Source of the DNA: Octopus sinensis
Taxonomy: Eukaryota
DNA length: 34,584 bases
Assembly (NCBI RefSeq): GCF_006345805.1
Contig: NW_021831663.1
Coordinates: 1 to 34,584, forward strand
Reading direction: 5' to 3'
In this document: positions 5,315 through 29,164 of the stretch, piece after piece
Layout of the letters: each line of letters begins with the position of its first letter
Numbering within the stretch: the stretch's first letter is position 1
Translations under genes and position numbers: made by a program
The notes under the pieces: generated by a model
Told to the model about the DNA's origin: nothing
Databases searched by the model: none
The model's input: only the letters and a program-made list of their open reading frames with translations

Positions 5315-5319
<5 letters not shown>

Positions 5320-6076
5320 CTATAAATACAGTTTACATTAAAACACATACGAGGCATCCATCATAGGAATCCTTGCACGCTAGAAAGAACAGTTAAATTA
5401 AAAACTACTATTAAGGATATTTTTAATTCCCTTCGAAGTTTGGAGTTTAACTGCTCTTTCTAGCGTGCAAAGAGTCCTATGATGGATGTCTCTTATGTGT
5501 TTAAATGTACACTGTATTTATATGAATAATATATAGTCTATTGACTAAATTGTTTTACACGCCAGGCCACTGGAAATAGAAATTTCTAATATTTCTTATT
5601 ACCCTTGATATTAATTATTGATAATTTTTCCTGGATAATTTTCGAATTGAAAAGCCGGCATTATTATTTACTGCCGGCAAGGAGCTTCCATTGCGCGGTA
5701 GATTAAAAAAATTAGAATGTATAAGCACGGGGCATATACTGGATTGCCCCGTGCATATATATTTAATCTAGGTGTACCTGCTGAAGAAGACTTTGCCTAC
5801 AAATTATTATATTTGCTAAAATAAATCTAAAAACATGGTCCAGGAGTTAGATGGTAAATGTTTTCATTTTTCATTCCATTCTAAATGTTATCCCTAATAG
5901 TGGTTTGGAATTTAACTGTTCCTTCTAGCATGCAAGGAGTCCTATGATGGATGCCTCTTTTGAGTTTAAATGTACACTGTATTTATATGAATAACATATA
6001 GTCTATTGACTAAATTTTTTTACACGCTAGGCAATTGGTAGTAGAAATATTTAATATTTCTTATTACCCTTGATAT

Positions 6077-6078
<2 letters not shown>
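5315..6078 (+). mobile_element. Non-coding mini-PLE/retrozyme-like element between (TA)n tracts
   Basis: Direct repeats 5438-5613 and 5903-6078 (period 465); inverted copy 5315-5419 of ~5889-5993; hammerhead-like core in between. Confidence 0.75.
5777..5844 (+). ncRNA. Degenerate type I hammerhead ribozyme
   Basis: cctg-CTGAAGA-aga...tct-aAAA-acatgg-TC-cagg; stem I cctg/cagg is perfect; the catalytic G of GAAA is mutated to A. Confidence 0.6.
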
Positions 6079-6107
<29 letters not shown>

Positions 6108-6161
6108 TATATATATTATATATAATATATATGTATTATATATCTATATATATATATGTAT

Positions 6162-6230
<69 letters not shown>

Positions 6231-7164
6231 AAAGAAAAAATGGGATTAAAAATCCTGGTTGATATGAATTAAGCACTCAGTATTATAGAGTAAGATTAAA
6301 TTCCTGCAGTCAGATACCAGAAAATGTAAGTAGAATGCAAATTCCCGGTTAACCTCATGTATGACAAGTAAATCCAGCAATCATTTTACAAGAATTTTAA
6401 AAATTCAGAGTATTTGGCAACAAATATATGTCCGAAAAAATCATATCTTTATTTTGGATCGCACCTTAAAAATCAAACGGTTGTTTCAAATTCAGATCAC
6501 AATTGCATTTTGTTTTTACATTTTAATTGCTTTCTTTTTCAATCTCTTTTTAATTTTTTTTCAGTCAAGTTAATTACGCTTTCAGCATTGTGTTCTCTGT
6601 ATTAGAAATAATTGCAATATTTCCCATCGAAGCCTTGCACAGCATTCACTTATACTTCAGCGTATGTCTGTATGCACTCATGTATTTATGAATGAGTATG
6701 CATGTATGTTAGGGAGTGTGTGAGTTGATGACAACGTGTGTTGTGGTGCGTATATGTGGGTGCGCGTGTATGTTATACATAAAAACTAAGTGCGTCAGCT
6801 TCTGATCTATTAACCGGTAGTTCTCCCGAGAACTAGCTTGTCTTCTTCTCCCTTATCCCTTGGGTACTCCATAATTATTTGATCTTCTTCCCGTCTTTCA
6901 TATTATTACGATATCCCGCACCTCCCCACCATCCCATGCTAAACTCTACGTTCATTCATCGTTACAAAACGTCACCCCCAAGAGGTCGTCCCTAGATTAA
7001 TATCCTACCTAATCATTATGATACATATATGTAGAGAAACAGTTATAATGTACAAAAGACAACATAATAAATCATAATAAATTAGCCACTGGTTTTCCGA
7101 GACGACGAAACGTTCACAAGACAGAGAAGAAAAATTGAAGAAACAGTGAGAGATAATAACCTAC

Positions 7165-7259
7165 CTGTATCTTCAGGAATGGCTCCTGCATACTTATTCT
7201 CCGGTATTTTGCGTATTTTCTGGTCACGTTTTGCAATTGGTATTTTACCCCTAAATTTC
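7165..7259 (-). CDS. Basic juxtamembrane exon (KFRGKIPIAKRDQKIRKIPENKYAGAIPEDT)
   Basis: Open frame rich in basic residues after the TM segment; tttag acceptor, gtaggt donor; phase 2-1. Confidence 0.7.
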
Positions 7260-8261
7260 CTAAACGAATTACAGAAATATTTCATGAATTACAAGTGTAT
7301 GATTATCAATGTGATGTCTAAGACAAACATGTTAAATATTATACAGTTCCAGTATAATGTTAAATAGTATGTTAATAATGATAACAGCTCGTCAATTTTA
7401 TAGTAATAAATCAAAGAATTAAAAGTTAAACAGCAAGGTCTTCAATTTCATACTAAAACTGAAACTATAAGTAATCTGTAATACAACCAGTCATATGAAC
7501 ACATTCTTACTTATAGGTTAGTTTTCCTTTATTTATATCACAAAGTTTTGCGAGGGAAATATTATTGCCATATGAGAATATTATTTCTCCATCTTATAGG
7601 GATTAAATTCTGAACCTATGTGAAATACTGTTATTTTAAACATTATTAGATTACGTAGAGTGGCCTTACTGCCTTGTGGTCATTATTTTCATCCTTTACG
7701 TTCAGAATGCATTCAGTTACCAAATTTATCGCTGCTAAGTTGATAAAATAAATGTTAAATAATATATTTTATTTTTGGAGTCGGTTCCAACTAGCTACAC
7801 CTATTGTTTGTCAGTTATATTACGGTGCCAAAAATAACAATGCATAATTATTAGTAATATATGTAGGTATCTACCTACTTACGTACATACATACCATACA
7901 CACACCACGCACCATTAAACACACGAACACACACAGGCGAAATTTGCTTTCACATCCCACGAAAATTATAAAAATAGTTTTTAATATGTTAATATAAAAT
8001 TCTTAAGTAATGCAACAGTTCTTACTTCTAACATTAATTCAGAATTTAGCATAATAACAGGCAGTTATTGAATTTAATATTCTCGTAAGCAGTAATAGTA
8101 AATCAGTACACATGGTAATTAGGAAAGGATATTGCATATTTATATGTATTAGATTATATAAATTATGAATTATGACATATTCTTATATCACAATAACCGA
8201 AAATGGCACATAGTAAGGACACTAACTAAAACTATAATGGTCATTTAACTCCATTAATTAC

Positions 8262-8394
8262 TTTTGAAAGTAAAAAAAGGTTATAAAAAATATCCACATA
8301 CCAATACCAATTGCAGTCACCAGTCCTATGATTAGTAATATGAACAAGAGCAATGGAACTAACACAAACACCAGGGTACTTTGGGCTGATTTCT
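8262..8394 (-). CDS. Transmembrane exon (EKSAQSTLVFVLVPLLLFILLIIGLVTAIGIGMWIFFITFFYFQK)
   Basis: Long hydrophobic run; ttccag acceptor. The donor gtaatt at 8261 gives phase 2, matching the next exon; an alternative donor gtatgt lies at 8301. Confidence 0.8.
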
Positions 8395-8435
8395 CTGGAA
8401 AATGAGAAAATGCATTGGTTACTTAAACACATATG

Positions 8436-8505
<70 letters not shown>

Positions 8506-8510
8506 CGATA

Positions 8511-8561
<51 letters not shown>

Positions 8562-8564
8562 TCT

Positions 8565-8670
8565 TCACCTGGTTTCAGTCATTTTGATTGCGGCCATGCT
8601 GGAGCACCACATTTGGTCGAAAACAATCACCTTATTCTTTGTACTATTCTATCGGTCTCTTTTGCCGAAA
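8565..8670 (-). mobile_element. SINE 3' fragment, family of 475-775
   Basis: gtttcagtcattttgattgcggccatgctggagcacc...tattctatcggtctcttttgccgaa. Confidence 0.7.
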
Positions 8671-8709
8671 TTATTATTATTATTTATAGTATATGCATAT
8701 ATATACACA

Positions 8710-8825
8710 CATGAATGGGTGTTGAAAAGTTCATGGTTTTAAGTAAAAGAAGATAGAGGAGAATATGTTAATTATGATTTTATTCAATATATACCCTTCT
8801 CAGATTCAAACACTTATTGCAGCTC
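8710..8825. mobile_element. Possible mariner/MITE terminus
   Basis: gggtgttgaaaagttcatgg resembles the TIR at 10616; no partner end found. Confidence 0.35.
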
Positions 8826-9539
8826 TCATTCATAGAGGTACGGATCGCACCCTTCCCCCACTAATTTTCAGTCTTTATGGATGCCAAATATACAAAAACC
8901 GACGCCGAGATACGCGAATGTTGCAAAGGAGAGCATGACAATGTTACAACAGAAACCATTGCAACATAAAATCAAATTATAAATTAGATAATATCACATT
9001 GATATGTTAGGAATAGAATTGTGTGCAGCGCAACCAATACACGACAAGATTTAGCAGAACAAAACTGTGTGAAAATAAGATCAAAAATGAAGCTGAGAAG
9101 CGTAGGATATAAAGCTACGATGGATGGGGGATTGAATACTGACATATCAGAAATTACTTCTGACTAGAAACTACCAAACATCTTTAATGAGGCAGAGTAA
9201 AAACGATAACTTTAGTATAAGTAGAGGCTGTACGAAAAAAGAATCAATAACTTGACACTACTTCCCACGTGCATTCTTAGTGAAAACAGGCTAATGTTGC
9301 TTAGAAACTATAACAGGGGAATCTTATGAGCTGGCCATTTGGCATTTCGGTGAGATGTTCTTAGAAAGATGTAGCGTAACTGAGAACTACATGAAATGCC
9401 TCACATTACACATTCATTCCTACTAATAATCTGGTATATATTGTCTTCATAATATATCAAACTCCTTATATATCGAAGAATCAAAGAATCAATTAGAGAA
9501 ATAAGTTATCTATGACACTATTAATTCTCATTAATACAC

Positions 9540-9909
9540 CTGTTAATTTCAGGTTCACATAATTTGTGGTCTTCATTCTTTTCCTCTTGATAGTAACATT
9601 ATAAATAAGACATTTATACAGTCGTTATCACAGACCACCTATCAATTCACTCGGGTTGTATATTACCTCTCCAATCCACCTCGTTTAACTTAATATTATA
9701 TTACAAAACGTGTTTTGTGGTATCATGTCCCACTTTAATTAAAAGTTACGGATTGATCCATGAATGAATATTTAGAAAATATATTCAGCTTTATATCAGT
9801 GCAGCTCAATTTCTATTAATAAAATCCATTTGATAAAGTTTTGTCCATCGCATTGTTGATAAAGAGGCATGTTTCCATATAATCTGTAGCAAACTGAGCT
9901 ACTTAACCA
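9540..9909 (-). CDS. Possible extracellular stalk exon (interrupted frame)
   Basis: ttttcag acceptor and gtgtat donor between the last EGF exon and the TM exon; partial Cys-containing reading, but it needs frameshifts. Uncertain. Confidence 0.3.
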
Positions 9910-10170
9910 CTGAAAATATCACAACGAAGACAAAATACATAAGATGGCTTTTACTTCCGTACTCTTAAAAAATGATGACTATACTCATTTTCTGCATTAG
10001 AAATATAATGAGGTATCAAAACATACATCTTTACTCAATATAAGAATTTTGAAATAACTCTTTATTAAAACTCAATCAGTTTTATTATAAAGAAGGAAGG
10101 TAAATACGCTGATTTAATAATATTAAAAAAAAATCAATAATTCATGCGTATAAAATGTATTGAAAATAAC

Positions 10171-10300
10171 CTTTTTGGCAGTTGAATCCGTGGTATATCC
10201 TTCATCACATGTACCTGGACAGGAGCCGTTAATGTTGTTACACTTTTCAGAACAACGACATGACACATTGCATCCAAGACCAAATCTATCATGGAACACT
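10171..10300 (-). CDS. EGF/laminin-EGF exon, type A (EC..DRFGLGCNVSCRCSEKCNNINGSCPGTCDEGYTGFNCQK), with small indels
   Basis: 8-Cys MEGF10-like spacing; canonical splice sites; 130 bp versus the expected 129. Confidence 0.85.
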
Positions 10301-10615
10301 CTGAAATCGAAGTGGTTACAGACGAATTGCTATAAGGATAATTTTATAGTCTTATATAGACGGTAAGATCTGCCACAACGAAGTAAAGTTATTCTTGTCC
10401 ATCAATTTCATTGCATCTTAAGATAAAGAAATATAATCTATCTCGTATGAAAAATGGACAAATAAATTATTTAGATGGAAATAAATATTTTCCAGATACT
10501 TGGATTAAACTCATTTTGTTAACTATATCAGTGAAATGTAAAATGTATAATAAATACAGAAGCATGGTTACAACAACATTCGTATGAAACCAATGACACC
10601 AGCAAAAAACAACGT

Positions 10616-11416
10616 AGGAGGGTTGGCCGAAAGATTCATTGGTTAACTATGAAGGAATGAGGCTAGAGCTATGAAATGCTACATGAATGAATTTCAGCAC
10701 ATTTTACTAATATTTGCATTGTAAACTGACATTTGATTGTTCAAAGAAGACTTCAAATGTAACTAGCAGCAACTTCTCTACAAAAAGTACCACAATCAGC
10801 GTCGTGCTGTTATCAAATACCTACAAAAAAAAGGTTTAGGCCCGGAGGACATTCATGCTGACATGGTTGCTACATTAGGGCATGTCATTCCAGGTTTAAC
10901 AACATTGCAAAAGTGGGCAGTTGAATTTAGCGGGTGAGGGTGTGTGTTGATGTTAACGCAAGGTCTGGAGGTCTGGAGTACTATTCCAATTTACTGAGGC
11001 AGTTGCGAAAGGCTATCCACACCAAATGTCTAGGAAAACTAATGAAAGTGGCTTTGCTTCATCAGCTCAATTCTCCAGCATAGAAGTCCTTGATTTTAAT
11101 GGCTGCTGTGTGTGACTGTCTTTGAACTAGTTGATCACTTACCCTACTTTCCTGATTTGGTCCCACCTGACAAATGTCTGTTTCCCCAACTGAAAAAACA
11201 CTTGGCTGGGAACTAGGATCGCAATGGCGATGATGTCATACCGCTGTCGATATTTTTTAACTAAGGGTTGAAAGCCTCTTCAGCAATGGGATCCAAGCAC
11301 TGCAACTCGATTGAAGAAATGTATGGAATGCAGGGGGGACTTTTTGAAAAATAAGCCTCATTGATGTTATTCCATTTGAGTATCTTGGTCAGCTTATGGA
11401 CTCGTCCACACGAATA
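10616..11416 (+). mobile_element. Internally deleted, decayed mariner transposon
   Basis: Translates RAVIKYLQKKGLGPEDIHADMVATLG..LQKWAVEF (HTH) and LLHQLNSPA..HLPYFPDLVPPD..LFPQLKKHLAG (YSPDLAPxD-like); imperfect TIRs at ~10616-10650 and ~11386-11416. Confidence 0.85.
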
Positions 11417-12283
11417 TTGTATTGCATCAAAGCCATACAGCCTTCGCGTAGATCAGTCATTTTTTGGCTTTCCTCTTATTAGTAAACGCTGATATCTAAA
11501 GATAACTAGTCATTTTAGAGTAATAATGCCATGAGTGAAATACAAATCAGTCTAGGATGTTGATATTGCAGCATATGTTAATCCTCCTAAATAATACAAG
11601 AGATGTACCGTATAATATGAAAATAATTTCAGTTAACTATCACCATTTTCCAGCCTCTAACAATGGTTATGTATGTCGGTGGGATTTACAAAAATGTAAT
11701 ATTTAGGTTATTTATGGCAGTAGTCTACGATGTAGATTATTAATTAATATGCTATATAATGAAAGAAAAACAAACACAATTGTTGATAATTTGCTATATA
11801 TACCATCTTTCTTTACAAAACATGTGTTTATCAGTTAGGTATCGGTTCTACATTTGGTTTCTGCTTTTATTCCCAGTCTAGCAGCATAATCTCTAACATA
11901 ATTTCAGTTTCATATTTAAAGCATTATTAATATACATAAATATTGTTGTGAGATATATCAAAACAGTGAATTATGTAGTTAAAACTGTAATGTATAATAT
12001 GACCATACCCTGCTTTTACTGGCGAAATATATTTATATCATTCCACAGGCACATATTCTGGGAATGAGTAAGGCATGAATAGTATGGCATCACATTTATC
12101 TTTCGTATAAATGTCACACAATCTATCACAATCATAAACCAATATGTGAAAGGTGTGCAATATTGACAGATACGAACTACCTCTTCAATTAGAATAATTA
12201 TCGAAGGAGTAATTCATATTTAAAATTGTTTGACTTATGTTACTATGCACGCATATTAAACTGAGGACATCAAAATATGGGAC

Positions 12284-12314
<31 letters not shown>

Positions 12315-12315
12315 A

Positions 12316-12384
<69 letters not shown>

Positions 12385-12524
12385 ATACGTATAAAATAAT
12401 ATGACGTTTGGGAGTTCTCATCTTTCCACTCGCACATTATTAAAATAACAGGAAATATTTAGAAAGAAACGAATCCACAGGTTGAGACATATTTTTAAAA
12501 ATATAATATAGACTTAAATTATAC

Positions 12525-12658
12525 CTTGTTGACAATTATCACTTCATATCCAGCAGCACACCCATTTGGACATGTTCCATTTCGTCTGTCGCACTTTTTG
12601 TTGTCAACACAGTGACATATATCTATACAATTTACACCAAATTTATCTCCTTCACATT
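12525..12658 (-). CDS. EGF exon, type B (ECEGDKFGVNCIDICHCVDNKKCDRRNGTCPNGCAAGYE.DNCQQ), 1-bp deletion
   Basis: Cys pattern and splice sites; 134 bp versus the expected 135. Confidence 0.88.
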
Positions 12659-12901
12659 CTGAAAATATTGGTATAAACAATTATATTAGATATCATTTAC
12701 TGAATATAATAAAAGTTATATCTATAATACTTTCTACTTCAGAATATAATTAAGATATTGTATGCCTAAATAATAAACATTAAACATTTGTTCGCTTAAC
12801 GTAATATGTTATCATAAAACAAGATTGAACAGGTAGAGACACATTAAATGAAATATAAAAATTAATTTAATAATTCTGGAATAAAGTATAGAAGAAATTA
12901 C

Positions 12902-13029
12902 CTTCTTGACAGCTGGATCCGCTGTATCCTGCATCACAATCACCTGGACATGATCCATGTACGTGGTCACATGTTAGGGAACAATGACAATCCTTTATGC
13001 AATGTGACCAAAGCTACCACTGGAACATT
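12902..13029 (-). CDS. EGF exon, type A (ECSNGSFGH.CIKDCHCSLTCDHVHGSCPGDCDAGYSGSSCQE), 1-bp deletion
   Basis: Cys pattern and splice sites; 128 bp versus the expected 129. Confidence 0.88.
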
Positions 13030-13255
13030 CTGAAATAAAGTATTGTTAGAAATGAATCCGGAGTATTCCGCCTATATATATGTATATACAAGCAATTATG
13101 CCCCTACGTGATTTTGCATGTGCAGAAATGCAGATGCACACACATGCCACGTTAAGTCACTGAAATACATTTATTCACAGTTGTATGGATACCTATCCAT
13201 CCATGCATACAATACTTACTTACATGTATATGTACATAAGTACACAGCACCCACG

Positions 13256-13286
<31 letters not shown>

Positions 13287-13349
13287 TTGTATGTATATAT
13301 ATGTATATATGAGTGTTAGTGTGTGTCTGTGTCTGTGAGTGGATGTGTG

Positions 13350-13660
13350 AACACGCATGGCTCTGGTTAAGTGGTTTCATTTCACTCACAATTGCGAGGT
13401 CGTGGGTTCGATTCCCAGACCGGGCGTTACGTTGTCTTCATAAGCAAAGTAATCCATTTCACGTTGCTCAGCGATCATTTGTCGTTGCACCTTTACAAAT
13501 AATGTCGATTTGATGGAGGTGTGTAACTTATGCGTAAGACAAACATTTGATGACTATAATCATCTGCGTAGTTGTTTGCTAAGACATTGTGGAACCCTCA
13601 CTTGGTGTTCAACAACGGGTGAGTCCATCATCGCCGTGAGCGGTACATCATTTGTACAAT
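13350..13660 (+). mobile_element. Degenerate tRNA-derived SINE related to 24943-25268
   Basis: B box gggttcgattccc followed by atttcacgttgctc, shared with the 25-kb SINE. Confidence 0.65.
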
Positions 13661-13695
13661 GTGGAAAATATACCGCCAACTTTGCACAAACGACC

Positions 13696-14125
13696 TAAAC
13701 ATTAGCTTCAGGTTCACCCAAGACTTGGACCACGGGCTATACGTCCCCTGCCCAATTCAAGATCACAACATACATGCACTGCAACATGATTTCTTTTCCT
13801 CAACAGGCCCTGCGCTATTTAACATTGTCCCGAGGGAGATCAAAGAGGAAAAGGATCCCATCAACTTTAAACAGAGTCTGGATAGATTCCTTCAAAGAAT
13901 ACCAGATAAGCCACTCATAATTGGATACAACTCACCCAACAAGAACTCACTACTTGAACAAACTGGATACAACTCACCCAACAAGAACTCACTACTTGAA
14001 CAAAACGTGACTGGAACAAAACTTGACTTAAACAGGATTCGAATAATCCTATCAGGTGGTGCTATTAAGTTAGACATGGCCTGGACCAATCTTTGGTCGA
14101 AACATATCTAAGTTTATCTAAGTTT
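13696..14125 (+). mobile_element. 5'-truncated LINE (CR1/L2 group) 3' end
   Basis: GPALFNIVPREIK..FKQSLDRFLQRIPDKP..GY..NSL C-terminus; (ATCTAAGTTT)2 tail; internal 42-bp tandem duplication (GYNSPNKNSLLEQ twice). Confidence 0.8.
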
Positions 14126-14134
14126 ATATATATA

Positions 14135-14259
14135 TATTAGAAGAAATGAGTTAATCAGAAGATCGGATGGTTTATATTTACAATATATTTTATATATTAC
14201 TTTTTTATATATATTACATATCACTTAGATCATTAGCGCTTTCTCATCATTCTAGTGGG

Positions 14260-14264
<5 letters not shown>
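14135..14264 (+). repeat. Short interspersed repeat; inverted copies at 18681-18850 and 25297-25470
   Basis: agaagaaatgag..aatcagaagatcggat...atcattagcgcttt...ctagtgggg reverse-complements those copies. Confidence 0.8.
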
Positions 14265-14300
<36 letters not shown>

Positions 14301-14369
14301 ACATGCACTCACACATCATTCACACGATCTTTCTCCTCTATCTCTCTTCCCCTTCCTCTCTCTCTTTCC

Positions 14370-14402
<33 letters not shown>

Positions 14403-14457
14403 TTAGTGTAGGAAGAAATGGAGCTGAACGAAGATTTAACAAAATTCCTTTTTATTA

Positions 14458-14541
14458 TTTTCTACATATGTTTCAAAGGCTGCAAAGTCCCTAATTCGGA
14501 TTGAATAAGGAGACCATTTTGCAGCCTTCTCTTCAGGAAAA
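14458..14541 (-). ncRNA. Type I hammerhead ribozyme, intact core
   Basis: Reverse complement of the ribozyme at 14728-14810. Confidence 0.85.
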
Positions 14542-14727
14542 TCCAGGAACTTAATTCTCCAACAAGATGCACAGCAAGCTTTTCAACAAACGCTCACGAG
14601 GAGCCCATGGGATAAATGGCGTCAACGCATACTGAGAGACAGTTTTGTGCCATTTATCCCATGGGTTCCTCGTGAGCGTTTGTCGAAAAGTTTGATGTGC
14701 ATCTTGCTGGAGAATTAAGTTCCTGGA

Positions 14728-14810
14728 TTTTCCTGAAGAGAAGGCTGCAAAATGGTCCCTTATTCAATCCGAATTAGGGACTTTGCAGCCTTTGAAACAT
14801 ATGTAGAAAA
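14728..14810 (+). ncRNA. Type I hammerhead ribozyme, intact core
   Basis: ttttc-CTGAAGA-gaaggctgcaaa..gtccct..agggac-tttgcagccttt-GAAA-catatg-TA-gaaaa; stem I, a long stem II and a palindromic stem III all pair. Confidence 0.9.
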
Positions 14811-15012
14811 TAATAAAAAGGAATTTTGTAAATCTTCGTTCAGCTCCATTTCTTCCTACACTAAATATATAAAACTTCAATTTCCGCACTAAGGCACGGT
14901 TTGAGACCCATGGTCGTAACCTCAACCGTGATGTTTCGTTGTGATTTTTGCTACCCAGGTATCGGTTATCATTTGAATAATCCGTAACAAGATAATTCAT
15001 TTATCCATTTCA

Positions 15013-15048: not shown

Positions 15049-15101
<53 letters not shown>

Positions 15102-15181
15102 TAATACAGTGATTGTTTCTTGTCAGGAACAGAAAGATTAATACGACTGCTATAGAAGTGCTCTATTGAAAGAGACAATAT

Positions 15182-15471
15182 ATCAAACGAAGGTTATAAA
15201 CAAACAAAAATGCAAGGTCATCCGCATAAACAATTCTATTCGATCGAACATTTAATCATAGAATATACATATAAACCCCCGCAAGATGGAACATAATTCA
15301 TCTGTACAAGCATATAAGCATATAAGAAGGTGCGAGAAAAAAGTTCATCACGGTTTAGAGTTAATACTTTAGCGATTCAGAAAAAAAAATTTTTTTAAAA
15401 ACATTACAACACCTAGAAAATAAAAATATATATAAAGTAATATATAAAATATATAGGTATATAAAATATAT

Positions 15472-15505
<34 letters not shown>

Positions 15506-18500
15506 AGGCATATAAAATATATGATATATATCGTGTAAATAAAAATAAAGTTCATCGTTAAGAAATATTATAAAATTATTATTCAAGTAAGAGAAGCCTT
15601 ATAGTTAAAAAAGAGGAAATCATATTTACTTAATTCCTATGGCCATTTCATGGGTGTATTTTATGTTTAAAGCACTAGGGTGCATCAAGATAATACCTCC
15701 TTCGTCAGGGGAAAAATAAAGAAGACAGACATCATCGCGTACCAGGCTAGAACAATGTTCTGTGCTTTCCTATTGAAGCATTCATGCTCGGATAAGCCCA
15801 AAAGAAAGAATTAAAGCAGTAAAAAAAATTTTCTTTTAAAGCAGTAGAGAAATAAGGCGGTAAAAAAAATGGGTGTATTGAAATAAATTAAGTTCAATTA
15901 AATTAAATTGAATTAAATTGAATTAAATTGAATTAAATTGAGCCTCCGTGGTTTAAAACCTGTAAAAGCTAAATTATTTATTTTCTACAACTTATTTTAT
16001 TCCTATAGACTTAAAAAATGGGTGTATTAAATTAAATTAAGTTCAATTAAATTAAATTGAATTAATTGAATTAATTGATCCTCCGTGGTTTCAAATCCTG
16101 TAAAAGCTAAATTATTTATTTTTATTTTCTACAACTTATTTCTATAGACTTTAAGAATGTAGAAGAAAATTTATGGATGCAAAAGGGAATCACGTCCGTA
16201 AATTTATTCAGAACGTGCGGTCCATAACACCTAAGGATGGTAAGTGATTCCCTTTTGCATAGCTTAAACTTGTTAATATTTCTCTTGAAATTTGGGGTTT
16301 TAGAAATAATGGACCATTCTAGATGATAATTCTTATTATTTTTCTTCAAGTTGTGTATATCGGATGCAAGTTAGTTGAGTTACAGTATTTGTCGTTAGCA
16401 AAGGGGCTCATATGTGATCTATATCTCGCCTTAAAGTCTATCGTGCTACCTATATAAAATTTATTTAGCTTATCTTCGTCCTTCACTATACATTTATATA
16501 TAATGTTGGTAACTAGACAGAACCATCTAAAGGACATAATTCGGGTTTTCTACAGTTAGATGTCTTTCCGGGCCTTTCCTAGTTTATTCCTATTGTTACC
16601 TTTACTTATTGTATCTCCAGTTCCAGACGGGTTCCCACCTTCATTCCATCAAATCTTCCCTTATTACATGGGTTCGATATACCCGGTAAAGGCAGACTGC
16701 TTGTAGCATTGGCATTAGGCGTTACAAGATTATCATACGCAGTTCCTGTGTCATCCTCAAAGGAACTTTTTCCGCTATTCCACCCAGCAAGCTTGCTTCT
16801 ATTGATTGAAGCAATGATGGAAGCAAAGTTAGGCATTACAGAGTAAGAGAATTTTATCGTTGACTTGTTGCAGATGCTATAGTATTTTGATTCTTTGGGA
16901 AGTTCTCCTTATGAATTCTAAAAAACCTTTTTGCTAAATTCCTTTCTCTAAGGGAAAAGGGGGGCGAACCAAACACTTCCCTTATTCTAGACCGTGAACC
17001 TCCCGTTTTGTTTAACTCCTTATCAAAATTACTAATTTTCTTATACCTGTACCTATTACCTATTGCGAGTATCCCTAAACATATTACTATTCAAAGGCCT
17101 GTTATTATTGCAGTTGGGGGGGGTTCTCTGCATTATTTATAGTATTTGTAATGTGCTTAATTGGCAAACCAGCCATTTTGTTTTTGAGTCTAGTATTAAG
17201 GATATAAATATTTTAGATTTGAAACAACTTAAACTTAGGGTATTATTATACCACCGGTGCATGCTGTTCAAAAATCTTTTCATTCGCAGATAAGTTAGAT
17301 ATTCTAGTTGAAATCGCAGTAATGATGCGGTCTATTGTGGATTTGGGGGTTGGATGATACATTATATATTGATTTATTAGGCTTAGGAAGGGATAATAGA
17401 GACCGGTATTTAGACTCAAGGTAACATCCAAAAAGTTTACCACCCTAGAGTTAATGTCGAAGATGATGTTAAGATTTAAAAAATCCCTCAAGAAGCTTCT
17501 CAGCGACTTCTTTAATCTGTTTTTCCGTCTTAGAGAGGCCCAGCACGGCAAAGAGGGCATCATCCCTTATAATCCACCAGTAAGATTAGGGAAGCTTTTC
17601 TTAATTCCCGAGAGAGATATAGGCCAACTAGGTCTGTAACCTGTGCAGAGTCTGATGACTCCATGGTTGTATCAAAAAATTTGTTGGGTCGGCTCTCTGC
17701 CAGTCACTCTCGTTATAGGAGATAAGTGTTTCTCTTGCCGCCAAAATTACCCCTATATCCGACTTAGGTATATCTACAAACCTTCTTGCAAATATTAAGG
17801 CTTTGTTTAACAAGATAGGGCTTATAGAGCTATAGTAATTCGAAATGTCGAATTGTATGAAATTGAGCTTAGGTTTCTTTGAGAGAGTCAAAACCAAAGT
17901 ATCACATCCTCAGTTCCTTTCCATAAGGGAGGTTGGACCTTTTCCCTCACAATTGGGATAATACCATCGATAATAAGTTTGCTGATTCTGCCCAAATCAG
18001 ACTTTGTCGGACATATCAATCTAATCGAAGGATTAGATAAAAATCAGACTATGGTCCTTCAATAAAGCATGGGGAGTATTTGGAGCATAAGGTTGGTTCT
18101 ATCAAGCAGGCCCAAACCAGAGATTATTTCCAATGGTTAGTATTAATCTTATTTATAGCATTTTTACTGCTTGTTTATAGCCTGAGTTTAGTTCCTTCAA
18201 TATCAAGTCGTTATACAAATTTGGTGGTACAGAGTAAATATTCCCGGTTTTATCAGACAATACATGTAGGTCAGGAGATGATTTCATGGACGATATCTTC
18301 TGAGATAGCAGCTTCTGGAAGGGATTGGTGTATTTTGAAAATTTCAAACGCTTAATTAAGTTCATCAGGTCCTGTTCAAACTTGGCAAGAGCTGGGTTGG
18401 ACGGAGGGTTTCTATAGGTTTTAAGCTTATATGCTTGTACAGATGAATTATGTTCCATCTTGCGGGATGTTTATATGTATATTCTATGATTAAATGTTCG

Positions 18501-18558
18501 AATTATGAATTGTTATGCGGATGACCTTGCATTTGTTTGTTCTATAACCTAGTTTGAT
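15182..18558 (-). mobile_element. Naiad-type Penelope-like element A, copy 1 (RT + GIY-YIG, frameshifted)
   Basis: SDKTGN, FIQFDISNYYSSI, VVNFLDVT and IIYKC..FYIGST motifs; inverted terminal arms 15182-15326 / 18425-18558; extra ~140-bp tandem duplication at 15864-16152. Confidence 0.92.
15634..15713 (-). ncRNA. Hammerhead ribozyme in the 3' UTR of element A1
   Basis: ttccc-CTGACGA-long stem II-GAAA-tggcca-TA-ggaa; base of stem II imperfect. Confidence 0.7.
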
Positions 18559-18887: not shown

Positions 18888-19207
18888 TCCCGATTCAAAA
18901 TACGACCATCAGGGCATTCCCAGATTCTCCCACCCCCTTACCTCATCAGCCTTCTACTACTACCCTACCAAGAACTCACAACGACCTCCAACACACAAGT
19001 GCAAACAAGGGAGTCAGAGAAATGCAGAATGCTACTTATATCTGAACACTACTATAGAAATATTCCTTTAAAAAAACTTTTCTTCTATTTTTCTAAATTT
19101 AATAATTTAATCGTTACAGTTGAAAAGGTCTCAAAATGACCGAAACCGGTACTGAAATGTTCACTATAAAATTATTTTACCATTTTCTATTTTTGACTTG
19201 TTTTTTC
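18888..19207 (+). mobile_element. PLE 3' fragment with a degenerate minimal hammerhead (~19117-19154)
   Basis: cag-tTGAAaA-ggtc..gacc-GAAA-ccgg-TA-ctg; flanked by (TA)n on both sides. Confidence 0.65.
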
Positions 19208-20450: not shown

Positions 20451-20488
<38 letters not shown>

Positions 20489-20576
20489 TTCACTCACAAC
20501 GTTTTGAATTCTAAAACCAGTCCTCTTTTTACATCATCTAATTAGACGCATCTGCACGGAAGTTTCGCACCCGAGT
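19225..20576. repeat. Non-coding block X, copy 1 (duplicated at ~29165-30695)
   Basis: Colinear, near-identical sequence including a degenerate (CA)-rich tract; ends gtttcgcacccgagt in both copies. Confidence 0.93.
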
Positions 20577-20861
20577 GAGATAGATGCAGAAATTGTTTTC
20601 CATTTTCCGCCTCTGTGATTTGTTTTATTTTCAACGTACACTGATAAATTCCTGAAGAAGATCCAGCGACAATTGTATAATTACCGTTGATGACGTCAGG
20701 TAGCTATAGACATCGAACGTACTTTATCGGTATACTACTTGAAATATACCCATCACTTATATACTAATATCTGCTTCCCTTGCTTTATGCATCTCGTAAA
20801 GAAATATATGTGGTGATGGAAACATATTTTTTACAAAATATAATATAGATTTAAATTATAC

Positions 20862-20996
20862 CTTCTTGACAATCGACGCCTAAATATCCATCAGAACATC
20901 CACCTTCACATGATCCATTTACTCTGTTGCAGCTTTCGTTGTCGATACAATGACATGTTCGTTTACAATTTCGCCCAAATCTACCAACTTCACATT
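20862..20996 (-). CDS. EGF exon, type B, intact (ECEVGRFGRNCKRTCHCIDNESCNRVNGSCEGGCSDGYLGVDCQE)
   Basis: 135 bp, phase 1-1, open frame, canonical splice sites. Confidence 0.93.
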
Positions 20997-21246
20997 CTGA
21001 AAATATTAATATAAGCAAATTGAATTATATATTATTAGCTACATATAATAAAGGCCATGATTGCAATAACAGATTTAACTGAGATATCAATGATGTTCCT
21101 TCTACAGTATGCCCGTTGCTAAGAAAGAAGATTTTTGCTGTGATTATCATAGTATCTTATGATAAAGAAAAAGTTAACTACGTTTAGAAACACTAAATCA
21201 AATATAGAGAATTTTGAATAATTGGGGAAAGTGTATTAAAAATAAC

Positions 21247-21374
21247 CTTTTTGGCATTTGAATCCGGTGTATCCATTATCGCATTCACCTGGCACGATCC
21301 GTTTATGCGGTTACATGCTACGGAACAATGACAGGACTCATTGCAATTGTGACCAAGGCTACCATTGGGACATT
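21247..21374 (-). CDS. EGF exon, type A (ECPNGSLGHNCNESCHCSVACNRINGSC.GECDNGYTGFKCQK), 1-bp deletion and GG acceptor
   Basis: Cys pattern present; the acceptor reads tttcGG instead of tttcAG; 128 bp. Confidence 0.8.
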
Positions 21375-21593
21375 CCGAAATAAAAAAAGATGTTACAATG
21401 ACTTGCTATTACAAGAGTTTTATGATAAAGTATATTTCACTTTATATACCAGATACTGTAATTACTTTTAGAGTTACAAAGACCGGATATGGTTAAATAT
21501 TTATTTAATATAGCATTGTATTTCTACTTTGGGCAGTATTAAAGTTACTGTAGGGAATATTATAGTGAAAATATAAGTTTTGATGTTAATATG

Positions 21594-21884
21594 ATCAAAC
21601 TAAGCTTATAGAACAAACAAATGCAAGGTCATCCGCATAACAATTCATAATTCGAACATTTAATCATAGAATATACATATAAACATCCCGCAAGATGGAA
21701 CATAATTCATCTGTACAAGCATATAAGCATATAAGAAGGTGCGAGAAAAAAGTTCATCACGGTTTAGAGTTAATACTTTAGCGATTGAGAAAAAAAATTT
21801 TTTTTAAAAACATTACAACACCTAGAAAATAAAAATATAATATAAAGTAATATATAAAAATATATAGGTATATAAAAATATATA

Positions 21885-21936
<52 letters not shown>

Positions 21937-24902
21937 AGGCATATAAAAAACATATGATATATATCGTGTAAATAAAATAAAAGTTCATCGTTAAGAAATA
22001 TTATAAAATTATTATTCAAGTAAGAAGCCTTATAGTTAAAAAAGAGGAAATCATATTTACTTAATTCCTATGGCCATTTCATGGGTGTATTATTATGTTT
22101 AAAGCACTAGGGTGCATCAAGATGGTACCTCCTTCGTCAGGGGAAAAATAAAGAAAGACAGGCATCATCGCGTACCAGGCTAGAACAATGTTCTGTGCTT
22201 TCCTATTGAAGCATTCATGCTCGGATAAGCTCAAAAGAAAGAATTAAAGCAGTAAAAAAAATTTTCTTTTAAAGCAGGAGAGAAATAAGGCGGTAAAAAA
22301 AATGGGTGTATTGAAATAAATTAAGTTCAATTAAATTAAATTGAATTAAATTGAATTAAATTGAATTAAATTGAGCCTCCGTGGTTTCAAATCCTGTAAA
22401 AGCTAAATTATTTATTTTTTATTTTCTACAACTTATTTCTATAGACTTTTAAGAATGTAGAAGAAAATTTATGGATGCAAAAGTGAATCACGTCCGTAAA
22501 TTTATTCAGAATGTGCGGTCCATAACACCTAAGGATGGTAAGTGATTCCCTTTTGCATAGCTTAAACTTGTTAATATTTCTCTTGAAATTTGGGGTTTTA
22601 GAAATAATGGACCATTCTAGATGATAATTCTTATTATTTTTCTTCAAGTTGTGTATATCGGATGGAAGTGTAGTTGAGTTACAGTATTTGTCGTTAGCAA
22701 AGGGGCTCATATGTGATCTATATCTCGCCTAAAAGTCTATCGTGCTACCTATATAAAATTTATTTAGCTTATCTTCGTCCTTCACTATACATTTATATAT
22801 AATGTTGGTAACTAGACAGAAACCATCTAAAGGACATAATTCGGGTTTTCTACAGTTAGATGTCTTTCCGGGGCCTTTCCTAGTTTTATTCCTATTGTTA
22901 CCTTCACTTATTGTATCTCCAGTTCCAGACGGGTTTCCCTCCTTCATTCCATTAAATCTTCCCTTATTACATGGGTTCGATATACCCGGTAAAGGCAGAC
23001 TGCATGTAGCATTGGCATTAGGCGTTACAAGATTATCATACGCAGTTCCTGGGTCATCCTCAAAGGAACTTTTTCCGCTATTCCACCCAGCAAGCTTGCT
23101 TCTATTGATTGAAGCAATGATGGAAGCAAAGTTAGGCATTACAGAGTAAGAGAATTTTATCGTTGACTTGTTGCAGATGCTATAGTATTTATGATTCTTT
23201 GGGAAGTTCTCCTTATGAATTCTAAAAAACCTTTTTGCTAAATTCCTTTCTCTAAGGGAGAAAGGGGGAGCGAACCAAACAACTTCCCTTATTCTAGATC
23301 GTGAACCTCCCGTTTTGTTTAACTCCTTATCAAAATTACTAATTTTCTTATACCTGTACCTATTACCTATTGCGAGTATTTCTAAACATATTACTATTCA
23401 AAGGCCTGTTATTATTGCAGTTGGGGGGTTCTCTGCATTTATTTATAGTATTTGTAACGTGCTTAATTGGCAAACCAGCCATTTTGTTTTTGAGTCTAGT
23501 ATTAAGGATATAAAATATTTTAGATTTGAAACCACTTAAACTTAGGGTATTATTATACACCGGTGCATGCTGTTCAAAAATCTTTTCATTCGCAGATAAA
23601 TTAGATATTCTAGTTGAAATCGCAGTAATGATGCTGTCTATTGTGGATTTTGGGGGATTGGATGATACATTAATATATTGATTTATTAGGCTTACGAAAG
23701 GGATAATAGAGACCGGTATTTAGACTCAAGGTAACATCCAAAAAGTTTACCACCCTAGAGTTAATGTCGAAGATGATGTTAAGATTTAAAAAATCCCTCA
23801 AGAAGCTTCTCAGCGACTTCTTTAATCTGTTTAATTCCGTCTTAGAGAGGCCCAGCACGGCAAAGAGGGCATCATCCCTATATAATCCACCAGTAAGATT
23901 AGGGAAGCTTTTCATAATTCCCGAGAGTAGATATAGGCCAACTAGGTCTGTAACCTGTGCAGAGTCTGATGACTCCATGGTTGTATCAAAGAATTTGTTG
24001 GGTCGGCTCTCTGCCAGTCACTCTCGTTATAGGAGATAAGTGTTTCTCTTGCCGCCAAAATTACCCCTATATCCGACTTAGGTATCTCTACAAACCTTCT
24101 TGCAAATATTAAGGCTTTGTTTAACAAGATAGGGCTTATAGAGCTATAGTAATTCGAAATGTCGAATTGTATGAAATTGAGCTTAGGTTTCTTTGAGAGA
24201 GTCAACCAAAGTATCACATCCTCAGTTTCTCTCCATAAGGGAGGTTGGACCTTTTCCCTCACAATTGGGATAATACCATCGATAATAAGTTTGCTGATTC
24301 TGCCAAATCAGACTTTGTCGGACACAGCAATCTAATCGAAGGATTAGATAAAAAATCAGACTTATGGTCCTTCAATAAAGCATGGGGAGTATTTGGAGCA
24401 TAAGGTTGGGTTCTATCAAGCAGGCCCAAACCAGAGATTATTTCCAAATGGTTAGCATTAATCTTATTTATAGCATTTTTTCTTGCATGTTTATAGCCTG
24501 AGTTTAGTTCCTTCAATATCAAGTCGTTATACAAATTTGGTGGTACAGAGTAAATATTCCCGGTTTTATCAGACATGACATGTAGGTCAGGAGATGATTT
24601 TATGGACGATATCTTCTGAGATAGCAGCTTCTGGAAGGGATTGGTGTATTTTGAAAATTTCAAACGCTTAATTAAGTTCATCAGGTCCTGTTCAAACTTG
24701 GCAAGAGCTGGGTTGGACGGAGGGTTTCTATAGGTTTTAAGGTGAAAATTATTTTTCTCGCTTATATGCTTATATGCTTGTACAGATGAATTATGTTCCA
24801 TCTTGCTGGATGTTTATATGTATATTCTATGATTAAATGTTCGAATTATGAATTGTTATGCGGATGACCTTGCATTTGTTTGTTCTATAAGCTTAGTTTG
24901 AT
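21594..24902 (-). mobile_element. Naiad-type Penelope-like element A, copy 2
   Basis: ORF fragments 24801 to 22426: LKDHK..IRLLCPTKSD, FDIS, SDSAQVTDLVGLY, GLYRDD, FLDVT, NCR..CPLDGFC, FYIG; 142-bp inverted arms 21594-21735 / 24761-24902. Confidence 0.95.
22065..22145 (-). ncRNA. Hammerhead ribozyme in the 3' UTR of element A2
   Basis: CTGACGA ... GAAA-tggcca-TA-gg, as in A1. Confidence 0.7.
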
Positions 24903-24937
<35 letters not shown>

Positions 24938-24942
24938 TACAT

Positions 24943-25268
24943 AAAAAAAAGACTCCGCCGATTACGACGACGAGGGTCCCAGCTGATACGATAAACGGAA
25001 CAGCTTGCCGTGAAATTAACGTGCAAATGGCTGAGCATTCCACAGACACGTGTACCCTTAACGTAGTTCTCGGGGATAATCAGCGTGACACAGAGAGTGA
25101 CAAGGCTGACCCTTTGAAATACAAGTACAACTCATTTTTGCCAGCTGAGTGGACTGGAGCAACGTGAAATAAAGTGTTTTGCTCAAGGACACAACGCGTC
25201 GCCGGGAATCGAACTCACAACCTTACGATCATGAGCCGAATGCCCTAACCACTAAGCCACGCGCCCTC
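24943..25268 (-). mobile_element. Full-length tRNA-derived CORE-like SINE
   Basis: A box tggcttagtgg, B box gttcgattccc, CORE-like gtgtccttgagcaaaacactt, T-rich end; absent from the paralogous site near 18650. Confidence 0.88.
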
Positions 25269-25486
25269 ACACATATACATACACACATACACATTCATGA
25301 ACCCCACTAGAGTGGGAAAAAGCGCTAATGATTTAAGTGATATGATATATATATATATATAAAAATGTAATATATAAATAAATATCTATAAATATAAACT
25401 ATCCGATCTTCTGATTACCTCATTTCTTCTAATACATAATACCCGTACATCATCTCCAAACCTTCCAATATATATATATATATATA

Positions 25487-25647
25487 TATTATGTGAAATA
25501 GAAAGATGAATAATCTTGTCGTAGATTAATCAAAAGTTTAACCGATACCTTAGTAGCAAAAATCACAGCAGTGAACAGCACTAAGGTATCGGTTAAACTT
25601 TTGATTAATCTACGACAAGATTATTCATCTTTCTATTTCACATAATA
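25487..25647. repeat. Perfect 68-bp inverted repeat with a 25-nt loop at the 5' end of element B
   Basis: 25487-25554 is the reverse complement of 25580-25647. Confidence 0.95.
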
Positions 25648-28600
25648 CATACCGCTTCGTCAGAAACTGCTACTTTAACCGACGCCAATAATGGAGTTGT
25701 TCGAGATTGATGCGTCCCTTAAGGATATTCCTATACCACCCAAAGATGCCTTCCTTAAGGAGTTGGTTTGTAAAACCAACGCATTCATAAACCGGATAAG
25801 ATGGCTCATTTTCTTCCACGAGAACGAAGATCTAAAATCGAACCGGACAACTGCATCGTCCGAATACGGCCGGCTTTTTAAAACATTGGATACGCCGCCA
25901 CCGAACCCAAGACTGAAGAAGTTTGAGGACGACTTGTGGGACATAGTTAGAAAGATTAAGTTCAGGAAGTCACCCAGGAGAATGCCCACCTCAGATACCT
26001 AGATAAAATTACCAAGGACATTAATAGAACGGACGGAGTCCTGTCCAGTCCGACAAGACCAGGAACACATACAAGATGCCCATTAAGCAGTACCTAGATT
26101 TACTCGGTAAAGAGATCAAGAAAATTATAGAAAAACCAATTGGAGTACCCTGAGGAAGGTAAACTTGGAAATTAAGGATAAATATTTAAACACCGAATTC
26201 AAATGAGAACTCAGCCGCTTAGCCCCAAGCAACCCAGATTTATAGTGAAGGACCATAAACCCAACTTCCACACCAACCCAGCGCTAAACTCATATGCCCT
26301 GCTAGATCTGATATCGGGATAATCAGTAAGTACATTTTAGATAAATATATCCCTAGTTTAGTAAACAAGCTGAAGCTCAGCCTCTGGCCAACTCCTCGCA
26401 GGTAGTGAAGTGGTTCTCTTCCATCCCCAATAAGAACCGTACTAGGTTCATTCAGTTTGATATCGCCAGCTTCTACCCCTCGATTAACCCTAGTGTGCTA
26501 AATAAGGCCCTCTGGCATGCTCACAACAAGGCAGGCCTCACCAGAGAAGAGATAGATATCATTTTAGTTGCCAGGAAATCGTTTATTAAGTTTGATAATA
26601 AGCTGTGGATCCGTAAGGATACTCCCAATGAATTTGATGTGCCTATGGGTAGTTCGGATAGTGCGCAGATAGCCGATTTGGTCGGAATATATTCTTCTCT
26701 ACGAATTGTCCGATCAATTCCCGGAAATCGCGGGCGGCCTGTATCGTGACGATTGTCTGTTTTACCTGCAAAACACCACGAACAGAATAGTGCAGAAAAC
26801 TAAGAGCAGGTTAGCTAGGTTTTTTAATAGAATGGCATGAGTATAGTTTTTTGATAACGAACTCACAAGGCTAATTTCCTAGACGTTACACTTAACCTTA
26901 ATAGCGACTCATACTGCCCTTACCATAAGCCTTCCACTAATTTGAAGTATGTCAGTGTCTTCTCAAATCATGCCAAAACCGTAACAGACAATTTGGTTAA
27001 AAACATCTCTCTAAGATTGTCTGGCCTGTCCGCCAGTGCCGATATTTTTATGCAGAAAGCGGATTTTTATAACGCCGCACTATCCAAGGCCGGTTATAGG
27101 CAGAAGGTAATTTATATTGATCCGGCCCTTCCGATGCCATCATTCGGTCATCAGGATAGGGCCGTATATAATAACATTAACATTTTAAAAGTAAGACGGG
27201 AGCGCGGCGGATACCGGGGTAGTCGCTCCCGCATTTAATTTAGCGAACAAGGATAATTATCGGTCCGGGAGGTCTTACACTAACCCAAGACCCGTTATTC
27301 ATCCGAGAATCACCCACCCAAATGCGAGAGCTGGCGTCCCGACCCATCACACTGATAGGAATAAGCATATATGGTTTGTAATCCCCTTTGGTAAGCAGAT
27401 TAGAACTAACCTCCCCCTCATGTTTAGACAAGCCATCGCCAATAACTTCCCCAAAATTCCAAATATTACTCCACGGTTAACTCACATAAAGTTAGGATAG
27501 CTTTCTCCAACACTAAAAACCTCCTCGCCAGATAATCGCCTCCCATAATAATAGGCTACTTACTAAGACCCTATCACCTTTTTCCGGAGGCACAGCCTCT
27601 TCCGCTCCCGGTTTAATGCTCAGTAGGAATAATTATAGTAGTAATAATGATATGAGAGCCAGTACAGTGACACATAATCTCAGCTCCAGCCAGGGAGTAC
27701 CCACTAGGGGTATAGTTATAAATAGGGGTGTTGTGGTTGATGGTAACAATGGGAGTAGGGTAGAGAGCCCCTTTATCATCCCCAGCATCATTTCCCGCAA
27801 TAGCAGTACCACGGGCAGTAGCAATGACAGCACTCTGATAGATAGTGGAGAATCAGGGTTATTCCTATAGTTAATAGTGACGTAGTGGAAAATAGAGTAG
27901 TAAGCGGCTGCAGGTCTCGGAACGAATATAGTGACAGGAACGCAGTTCTAATTTCAGAAACCAATCCTAGCAGAGTAAGATTTACGTCGGCGAACTCCAA
28001 GATCAAAACGCCGTCTACCAATGCAAGGTTTACACCGGACTCAGATGCCTTCACTTATATAGGGGCATCATCCTCAAGATTGTCTTTGCGTGTCTCCAAC
28101 CACCATTACGCAACTTTTCGGGACGTGAACAAGCGCCAGACCACGGGACTCAGTAAGCTAATATGGCGACTGAAGGATGCGAACTTAAGCTATAGGCTGG
28201 AATGGTCAATTTTGTCGGTGGCCCTCCCATTTGATAGGGGCAGAAGACAGTGCAACCTTTGTGTCTCCGAACTCTTCCATATTTTGTTTGCCAGAGGCCG
28301 GATGGTAAACGGGCTCTTACAGTCGGCTTTTCGATGCCCCCATTGGCGGCGTTACACTTATCTGGCCTTTAAATAGCGTTTATAAATAAGACCGGCACCC
28401 ATAGCCCTTGGTAACAAATTCTGAAATAGATTTTAAGATATCTACAATTAACCACTGCAAGGGAAATTACTCCTGTAAGACAACGGGGCTTGTTTTTTCA
28501 CAGCGGGGGGTTTCCTTGTCAAGGTAGGCTTAGATGAACACACACACACACACATAAAACATAAAATATATATATAATTTCTTTATTTTTTTTCTTTCTG

Positions 28601-28984
28601 CCACCCAACGGTTATCACGCAGTAGCCACTGACAGCCGAACGATCAAACGCACACACGTACACAAAAATGTTTTCTACCCCTACGCCAACACACACATAT
28701 ATAGAACAGTATACACACACACACACGTCTCTAAGTAGATTTTTTCTCGCCCCTTATAAAACATCCAATATTCTTTAAATAGTCAGAACTTTATTCTCGG
28801 TCACAAAGAACATCTATACACCCTCACCCACATGTTTGACCGATGCCTGACCTGTTGAATCTTCAGCCACCGGTTCTCAACATACACTGATAAACAGTTT
28901 CGCCATGGGCTCTTAGGAGCACAGTTCGATTGTTTTTTTTGCTCTGCCTCTGTTCTGTTTTGTTTTTCCAACGGATTTCCTTTT

Positions 28985-29070
28985 TTCTTCCTGAAGAGAA
29001 GACACAATATGGTCCCATTATTCAATCGGATTTTGGTAATTTGTGCCTTCGAAACACGTGTAGAATGAAA
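28985..29070 (+). ncRNA. Type I hammerhead ribozyme at the 3' end of element B
   Basis: ttc-CTGAAGA-gaagacacaa..ttgtgccttc-GAAA-cacgtg-TA-gaa. Confidence 0.88.
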
Positions 29071-29129
29071 TACAACGATTTCTGTTCAATCTGCGTTCAG
29101 CTCCATTTCTCTTCAATTCACCAATAATG

Positions 29130-29164
<35 letters not shown>

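Follow-up and report, generated by a model that had tools for sequence, protein, structure and literature searches.

Penelope-like elements (PLEs) of the Hydra clade are described in the relevant sections of PMC8557442 as generally under 3 kb in length, with a reverse transcriptase (RT) followed by a C-terminal GIY-YIG nuclease, DKT and RWK motifs, CxxC and CxH motifs but no CCHH, a CxCX5C linker, a type I hammerhead ribozyme and insertion into (TA)n. A member from Octopus bimaculoides, Hydra-1_Obim, is listed in the supplement of that paper with a hammerhead and a (TA)n preference; Naiads are characterized there by an N-terminal GIY-YIG nuclease and by the lack of a canonical hammerhead. A short palindromic stem III is described for PLE hammerheads, and circular templates are proposed for PLEs, in PMC4209133, and retrozymes are discussed as parasites of PLEs in PMC7229834 and bioRxiv 10.64898/2026.07.22.740005. 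The origin of the inverted arms, tails and pseudo-long terminal repeats (pLTRs) of PLEs is named as an open question in PMC8557442 and PMC2377424. Here we analyze a stretch of Octopus sinensis DNA of 34,584 bp (the window), which is the entire contig NW_021831663.1 of a 2.7-Gb genome and holds members of four hammerhead-bearing families, designated A, B, B′ and M5. These elements, their ribozymes and their presence in octopus are known in kind, and inverted arms, tails and retrozyme parasitism have already been published; what appears to be new is the strict pairing of two fixed 3′ ends, E1 and E2, in head-to-head insertions. We propose that, at a cut in (TA)n, the two DNA ends probably prime complementary DNA (cDNA) on one RNA, one at E1 and one at E2, a reading that rests on sequence comparison. 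No report of the pairing, or of a test for a template common to both arms, was found in the literature covered, with some older papers and supplements lying outside that coverage.

The 3′ ends of arms and their pairing

Family B was sampled as 100 stretches of 10 kb around the best nuclease matches, taken in list order with neighbours merged, plus the window; three loci already collected and about the last 35 rows of the match list fall outside the sample. Ends were mapped on one natural unit of 3635 bp. The 3′ ends of B lie at two sites: E1 is 66 nt beyond the hammerhead cleavage site, and E2, at 222 nt from it, precedes the next start codon by 44 nt. What lies between the two sites is the known optional tail of PLEs, with a length of 156 nt in B, about 145 in B′, about 80-85 in A and 88 in M5. 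In element A, the segment that an earlier note on this DNA had named the tail ends at E1, and the true optional tail lies beyond it.

The 5′ ends of B are scattered along the unit. A pile-up of 5′ ends at the cleavage site was considered for this family and rejected, with none of 172 falling within 10 nt of it. The cleavage site is intact in 165 of 172 B arms; 18 arms reach into an upstream unit and 10 extend over a further cleavage site, as many as three hammerhead sites being traversed, which upholds the earlier suggestion of a template that is circular or longer than one unit. TA-rich sequence adjoins 196 of the 202 outer B ends.

The 102 B insertions comprise 76 simple two-arm, 6 complex two-arm and 20 one-arm cases, the last ending at E2 (14) or E1 (6). 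Both ends lie at E1 or E2 in 77 of the 82 head-to-head insertions (71 simple and all 6 complex), and every one of these 77 combines one E1 with one E2 (binomial p = 7e-24 against free choice). The remaining five include two cut off by Ns or by the stretch edge and three with one internal end. Both 3′ ends face the flanks in all 77, in line with the earlier proposal that both ends of the target break prime cDNAs that are joined head to head. Such inversions recur genome-wide and are not unique to this locus.

Combined, the other three families give 44 mixed pairs against 2 same-end pairs. Family A shows E1+E2 in 16 of 19 head-to-head loci, with three loci having an unclassed end and none having two like ends. 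The same count, 16/19, holds for B′, where the other three are E2+E2; two of these (L030 and L129) are separate insertions. The third, L014:1490-2170, consists of head-to-head arms from two families (97% to B′ and 91% to B), both ending at E2, and we attribute it to two RNAs because of this dual origin. In M5, an older family, E1+E2 is found in 12 of 29 head-to-head loci.

Template of the two arms and competing explanations

Lineage markers are concordant between the B arms of one insertion at 422 of 448 positions compared, against a mean of 17% between insertions, and the arms diverge by 0.22% within an insertion as opposed to 1.18% between insertions. At common markers, 49 of 50 insertions have at most one mismatch, compared with 11% of 2402 pairs taken across insertions; three or more markers differ in 82% of such cross pairs. 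The arms lie within 40 nt of each other at 75 of 76 central joints, and overlaps of at least 4 nt occur at 15 of 76 (1.6% expected), an excess of microhomology. Extra fragments in either orientation are present inside the central joint of six B insertions (L185, L208, L213, L225, L235 and L241), listed alongside window positions 25496-25638 and 14402-14865. Their presence suggests template jumps during joining.

In the mechanism that we favour, the element protein would cut both strands of the (TA)n target, and each broken end would prime reverse transcription on a shared RNA, one per site. A protein dimer might hold a single RNA, its two active sites being loaded at E1 and E2, respectively, by analogy with the Penelope protein of the anole, and the pairing would follow because two active sites cannot occupy one site. 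The trailing cDNA would displace the leading one, after which the two cDNA 3′ ends would be joined via short inverted matches and filled in; extension of only one end would leave a one-arm insertion. The template would be read uncut through the hammerhead, either as an uncleaved multimeric RNA or as a religated circle. According to the in vitro results presented in PMC11167929, the anole protein acts on both strands, which it cuts and extends; it begins reverse transcription at two sites bounding the tail, works on uncleaved RNA and is a predicted dimer.

A more specific version is offered tentatively, and we rather doubt it: a protein dimer would make two copies of a single circular RNA ligated by its hammerhead, starting from two fixed sites within one RNA fold, with each end of the double-strand break priming one of them. 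The predicted fold enclosing E1 and E2 has a z-score of -5.1 in B and -3.1 in a relative, and the segment before E1 pairs with the start codon region. Since this fold needs sequence beyond E2 and no copy extends past the last E2, a circle would supply its downstream arm; long-range pairing in a linear RNA would supply it as well. In A and M5, the fold around E1-E2 lacks significance, with z-scores of 0.31 and -1.24, respectively. Comparison of tandem units, as a means of separating a circle from a linear multimer, gave 49 differences in 10,398 columns, none recurring in the 10 arms with overlap, at low power. If the circle and the dimer were both true, one mechanism would account for the tail, the inverted arm and pLTR regeneration, with the 465-bp unit of M5 as a retrozyme circle riding along.

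Several observations weigh against copying of one RNA from E1 and E2. The samples consist of best-scoring, young copies, and the A and B′ searches fixed one of the two ends through the query. Three B arms, in 3 of the 82 two-arm insertions, end at internal sites, and among the M5 loci one pair is E1+E1 (L047) and 16 of 29 are unclassed. The arms of L210 mismatch at 3 markers and still end at E1 and E2. Private alleles are found in both arms in only 58 of 188 cases and in one arm in the other 130; gene conversion or assembly polishing could raise arm identity, though not end pairing. Near-perfect palindromes make up 7 of 71 simple pairs where 1 is expected, several of them centred on short hairpins or palindromes, as fold-back would produce. 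Finally, the dimer is taken from a distant clade, and the in vitro study of the anole, in the text of PMC11167929, reports a start site no different between the strands and does not address pairing on single molecules.

The arms could also derive from two RNAs, each copied by a different subunit of an asymmetric dimer whose subunits would have invariant starts, E1 for one and E2 for the other; both RNAs would usually come from the same active source copy. This fits the 77/77 pairing equally well, and L210 and the 130 one-arm alleles speak for it. We nevertheless consider it improbable: several marker lineages coexist, as the differences among cross pairs demonstrate, yet the arms match in 49 of 50 insertions; 58 private alleles are common to both arms; and L014, the lone clear two-family insertion, breaks the pairing rule.

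Fold-back, in which one cDNA (or an antisense template, as proposed in PMC3846280) self-primes into a hairpin whose ends a nuclease trims at E1 and E2, would explain near-identical arms and the seven symmetric insertions with hairpin-like centres, and an "EN-mediated resolution" is suggested in PMC8557442. In 21 of 71 simple pairs, however, the arms are non-nested: the E1 arm reaches further 5′ and the tail is present in the E2 arm alone, so neither arm contains the other or can be a copy of it, and simple fold-back is excluded for these pairs, in which 61 of 67 markers still agree. Trimming by a staggered cut whose polarity is fixed would, moreover, tie the tail to either the longer or the shorter arm, whereas the longer arm ends at E2 in 38 of the 71 pairs and at E1 in 26 (equal in 7), and the two sites are starts of reverse transcription in vitro (PMC11167929). 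We give fold-back a slim chance as the general route; the symmetric minority can reflect either fold-back or annealing of two like cDNA ends.

The version set out in the earlier note, with a circular or multimeric RNA reverse-transcribed from variable start points into permuted copies by a Naiad RT, is very unlikely. It agrees with copies that begin at different points of the unit, with the 18 of 172 arms that enter an upstream unit and with the three internal ends. The mapping of ends, however, gives two fixed 3′ sites plus 5′ truncation and not permutation: the variation is at the 5′ (truncation) ends, the priming ends are fixed in four families, and the proteins are not of Naiad type. Inverted arms as independent secondary insertions or assembly artefacts, for which one-base assembly errors, a shared (TA)n preference and the two proven separate insertions at L030 and L129 might be cited, are hardly credible given the tight joints (75/76), the fixed ends in a strict pattern, the shared lineage and the same structures on the second haplotype, contig C14.

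Elements of the window, their ribozymes and proteins

The earlier note was right that an inverted arm stands at one end of all four elements. It had also placed (TA)n against each of them, and this is true of every end, including that of A copy 1, which runs to 15098, with a single exception at 21594, where the left end of A copy 2 is a duplication breakpoint. The inverted arm of the M5 copy (5315-5419, minus strand) ends at E1 against (TA)n, and its forward arm (5438-6088, plus strand), with 1.4 copies of the 465-bp unit and no reading frame, ends at E2 against (TA)n. The M5 type I hammerhead (5776-5845, plus strand) has CTGAAGA at 5781 and AAAA replacing GAAA; it would cut after 5840, and by its sequence is likely inactive in this copy.

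The 14.4-kb element, assigned here to B′, has an inverted arm on the minus strand (14402-14620) that ends at E1 against (TA)n and contains an intact hammerhead with its core at 14536. Its 5′-truncated forward arm on the plus strand (14617-15012) contains a hammerhead core at 14733, the cut site after 14805, E1 near 14868 and the tail to E2 near 15012. In this family, 7 of the 30 best loci continue upstream into a GIY-YIG frame, and L128 has the frame from its start codon; because longer copies carry an RT-GIY-YIG frame, the element is a 5′-truncated stub of a coding family related to B. The earlier description of four different elements is not confirmed in this respect, and M5 is the only coding-free family of the four.

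Element A is present in two copies as a result of a segmental duplication within the window (15.2-20.6 kb against 21.6-30.7 kb). The main arm of copy 1 (15098-18429, minus strand) has a 5′-truncated RT-GIY-YIG frame and a hammerhead-like motif with its core at 15708, and ends at E2 against (TA)n; its inverted arm (18419-18558, plus strand) ends at E1 against (TA)n. The main arm of copy 2 (21594-24761, minus strand), a duplicate of copy 1, has a frame without about its first 185 nt and a motif core at 22140; its left end, the breakpoint, lies at E1 and lacks (TA)n, and its inverted arm (24752-24902, plus strand) ends at E1 against (TA)n.

The inverted arm of element B (25490-25581, minus strand) ends at E2 against (TA)n. 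The main arm (25580-29130, plus strand) starts with the last 68 nt of an upstream tail, continues through a whole unit and ends at E1 against (TA)n. It includes a reading frame for RT followed by GIY-YIG (25691-28376, plus strand) and a type I hammerhead (28986-29070, plus strand) with its core at 28991, a palindromic stem III and the cut site after 29062. Compared with the intact copy L062, which encodes 895 aa, the frame in the window has 19 small indels and 7 substitutions, and on account of this excess of indels its frameshifts may be assembly errors; the assembly contains many one-base errors. The pairing rule holds for each element of the window, with E1 on the left and E2 on the right in M5 and in the 14.4-kb stub and the opposite order in A copy 1 and in element B.

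A strict type I descriptor matched the window three times (14733 plus, 14536 minus and 28991 plus), compared with a mean of 0.05 in 100 resampled windows. Thus the hammerheads claimed earlier stand for B and the 14.4-kb element, and those of A, with minus-strand cores at 22140 and 15708, and of M5 (5781) are degenerate in the window and fail this descriptor. Distinct family copies pass it in all cases (A 12/23, M5 16/37, B 17/21, B′ 31/35), and all four families have short palindromic stem III regions. An Rfam scan of the window gave no hammerhead at E<=1, simple-repeat noise apart. At 25663, a weak minus-strand match to CTGACGA...GAAA was rejected, as it fails the strict descriptor.

Judged by their sequences, elements A and B are Hydra-type PLEs and not the Naiads that the earlier note had named, because the nuclease is C-terminal and canonical hammerheads are present. 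The L062 protein has YRDD at 353 and GIY-YIG at 777-793, and the best fold matches to the predicted structure of the B protein are telomerase RTs. No N-terminal GIY-YIG motif occurs in 96 aligned proteins, and a Pfam GIY-YIG match is located at the C-terminus of the A-family frame. Both B and A have SDKT (DK[TS] in 90 of the 96, DKG in 1/96). RW is present with L as the next residue in B and R in A, in the place of the RWK motif of the Hydra clade. CCHH is absent, and the nuclease CxxC and CxH motifs are present (CNLC at 855 and CPH at 883 in B; CRLC and CVH in A). The Pfam search of window fragments and of the intact B protein passed no RT or nuclease family, and a Protein Data Bank sequence search with the 96-protein profile returned nothing meaningful.

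The CxCX5C linker is present in family A and in 59 of the 96 proteins, some of these partial, and its cysteines are lost in B, B′ and B″; we therefore file B as a Hydra-like variant and not as a full member. Its unit of 3635 bp also exceeds the length, generally under 3 kb, of the Hydra clade. The family is young, its best 150 nuclease matches being 98-100% identical. B, B′ and B″ are without the cysteine linker at window 27846-28376 and in L128 and L301, yet the outer ends of B adjoin TA-rich sequence as counted above. In a 919-aa open frame at L108:756-3515 (also L139), a family A RT-nuclease is fused in frame with a thumb and a CCHH-type GIY-YIG end from a different PLE clade; this is a natural chimera, perhaps formed by template switch.

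The 465-bp unit of M5 occurs in partial tandems, with a longest frame of 50 aa. Among 50 M5 loci, none is continuous with a Hydra frame, two have a separate match nearby, and no autonomous partner was found; nor does M5 resemble A, B or B′ at their ends. L050 has two adjoining units that both contain a complete hammerhead, which the window copy does not. We consider it likely that M5 borrows a Hydra-type protein. The earlier idea of coding-free units on PLE machinery thus retains M5, which shows the same end signature, and loses the 14.4-kb element, which is not coding-free.

A stretch of contig C14 nearly matches the window and, on sequence, reads as the other haplotype; element B is missing from the corresponding site. 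Near that site, C14 (L123, about 3200-3820) has a short B-like two-arm insertion with E1+E2, which is absent from the window. The two structures part ways beyond 30.7 kb, and a third short A fragment lies at the next repeat boundary of C14. The duplication breakpoint at 21594 coincides with site E1 of element A, which may be chance or may reflect cutting of the element's own end.

Cysteine-rich EGF (epidermal growth factor)-like exons, about 70% alike, form a tandem host gene array on the minus strand (9780-10270, 12480-13045, 20810-21390 and 31300-31890). Two more degenerate hammerhead-like modules, 73% alike and adjoining (TA)n (19051-19203 and 5096-5248), have mutated core letters and are probably ends of another PLE family. 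At 32825-34300, to the contig end, an unrelated RT fragment (weak Pfam RVT_1 match) with a cysteine motif downstream resembles another PLE clade. The inserts at 13340-13620, 24940-25270, 13623-14111 and 10780-11350 we take, by eye, to be SINE-like (short interspersed) inserts derived from tRNA, a LINE-like (long interspersed) tail and a mariner-like remnant; the Rfam scan gave a weak tRNA match at 25195-25264.

Comparison with known systems

As written, the finding of the earlier note is largely known biology under a wrong clade name. The elements resemble the Hydra clade, as presented by Craig et al. (2021, PMC8557442), in domain order, DKT, the RW part of RWK, lack of CCHH, CxxC/CxH, a 3′ type I hammerhead and (TA)n, and Penelope-13_HM includes an inverted 5′-truncated copy there. 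They differ in the 3.6-kb unit, in tails of about 80-156 nt instead of 30-40, in a long hammerhead stem II and in the loss of CxCX5C from B and its relatives. The Naiad clade of the same paper shares (TA)n targets, inverted and tandem insertions and the tail, and differs in the N-terminal nuclease and the lack of a canonical hammerhead. pLTRs, inverted 5′-truncated copies and the optional tail belong to general PLE structure in the accounts of PMC8557442, PMC3846280 and PMC2377424; here they obey a near-strict counted rule, with arms from the same template. The self-priming explanation given in PMC3846280 fails for the non-nested pairs.

The closest mechanistic likeness is to Poseidon PAc of the green anole (Frangieh et al. 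2024, PMC11167929), with two internal starts bounding the tail, cutting and extension of both strands, an AT-rich target, uncleaved RNA and a predicted dimer. The PAc sites are inside the frame and close together, unlike those described here, which are upstream of the start codon; the text of that paper draws no connection between the two sites and either the two ends of a single insertion or inverted arms. Animal non-LTR retrozymes (Cervera and de la Pena 2020, PMC7229834; Li et al. 2026, bioRxiv 10.64898/2026.07.22.740005) are like M5 in being short coding-free tandem units with a type I hammerhead, for which PLEs are proposed as helpers. M5 is unlike them in consisting mostly of dispersed short partial tandems with inverted arms and the two-end signature of PLEs.

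A near-strict rule of one tail per insertion, together with non-nested arms of the same lineage, restricts the mechanism to one in which both DNA ends act as primers. The two-end signature also offers a means of assigning coding-free repeats to Penelope-type machinery, the very active B family targets (TA)n without the zinc-finger linker proposed for targeting, and the pairing rule is testable in the existing in vitro system from the anole. Twin priming of L1 is similar in that both target strands prime on one RNA and microhomology is found at the joint. In L1, however, the internal position of the second primer varies and the arms have no overlap, whereas here both positions are fixed and one sequence is duplicated in the two arms.

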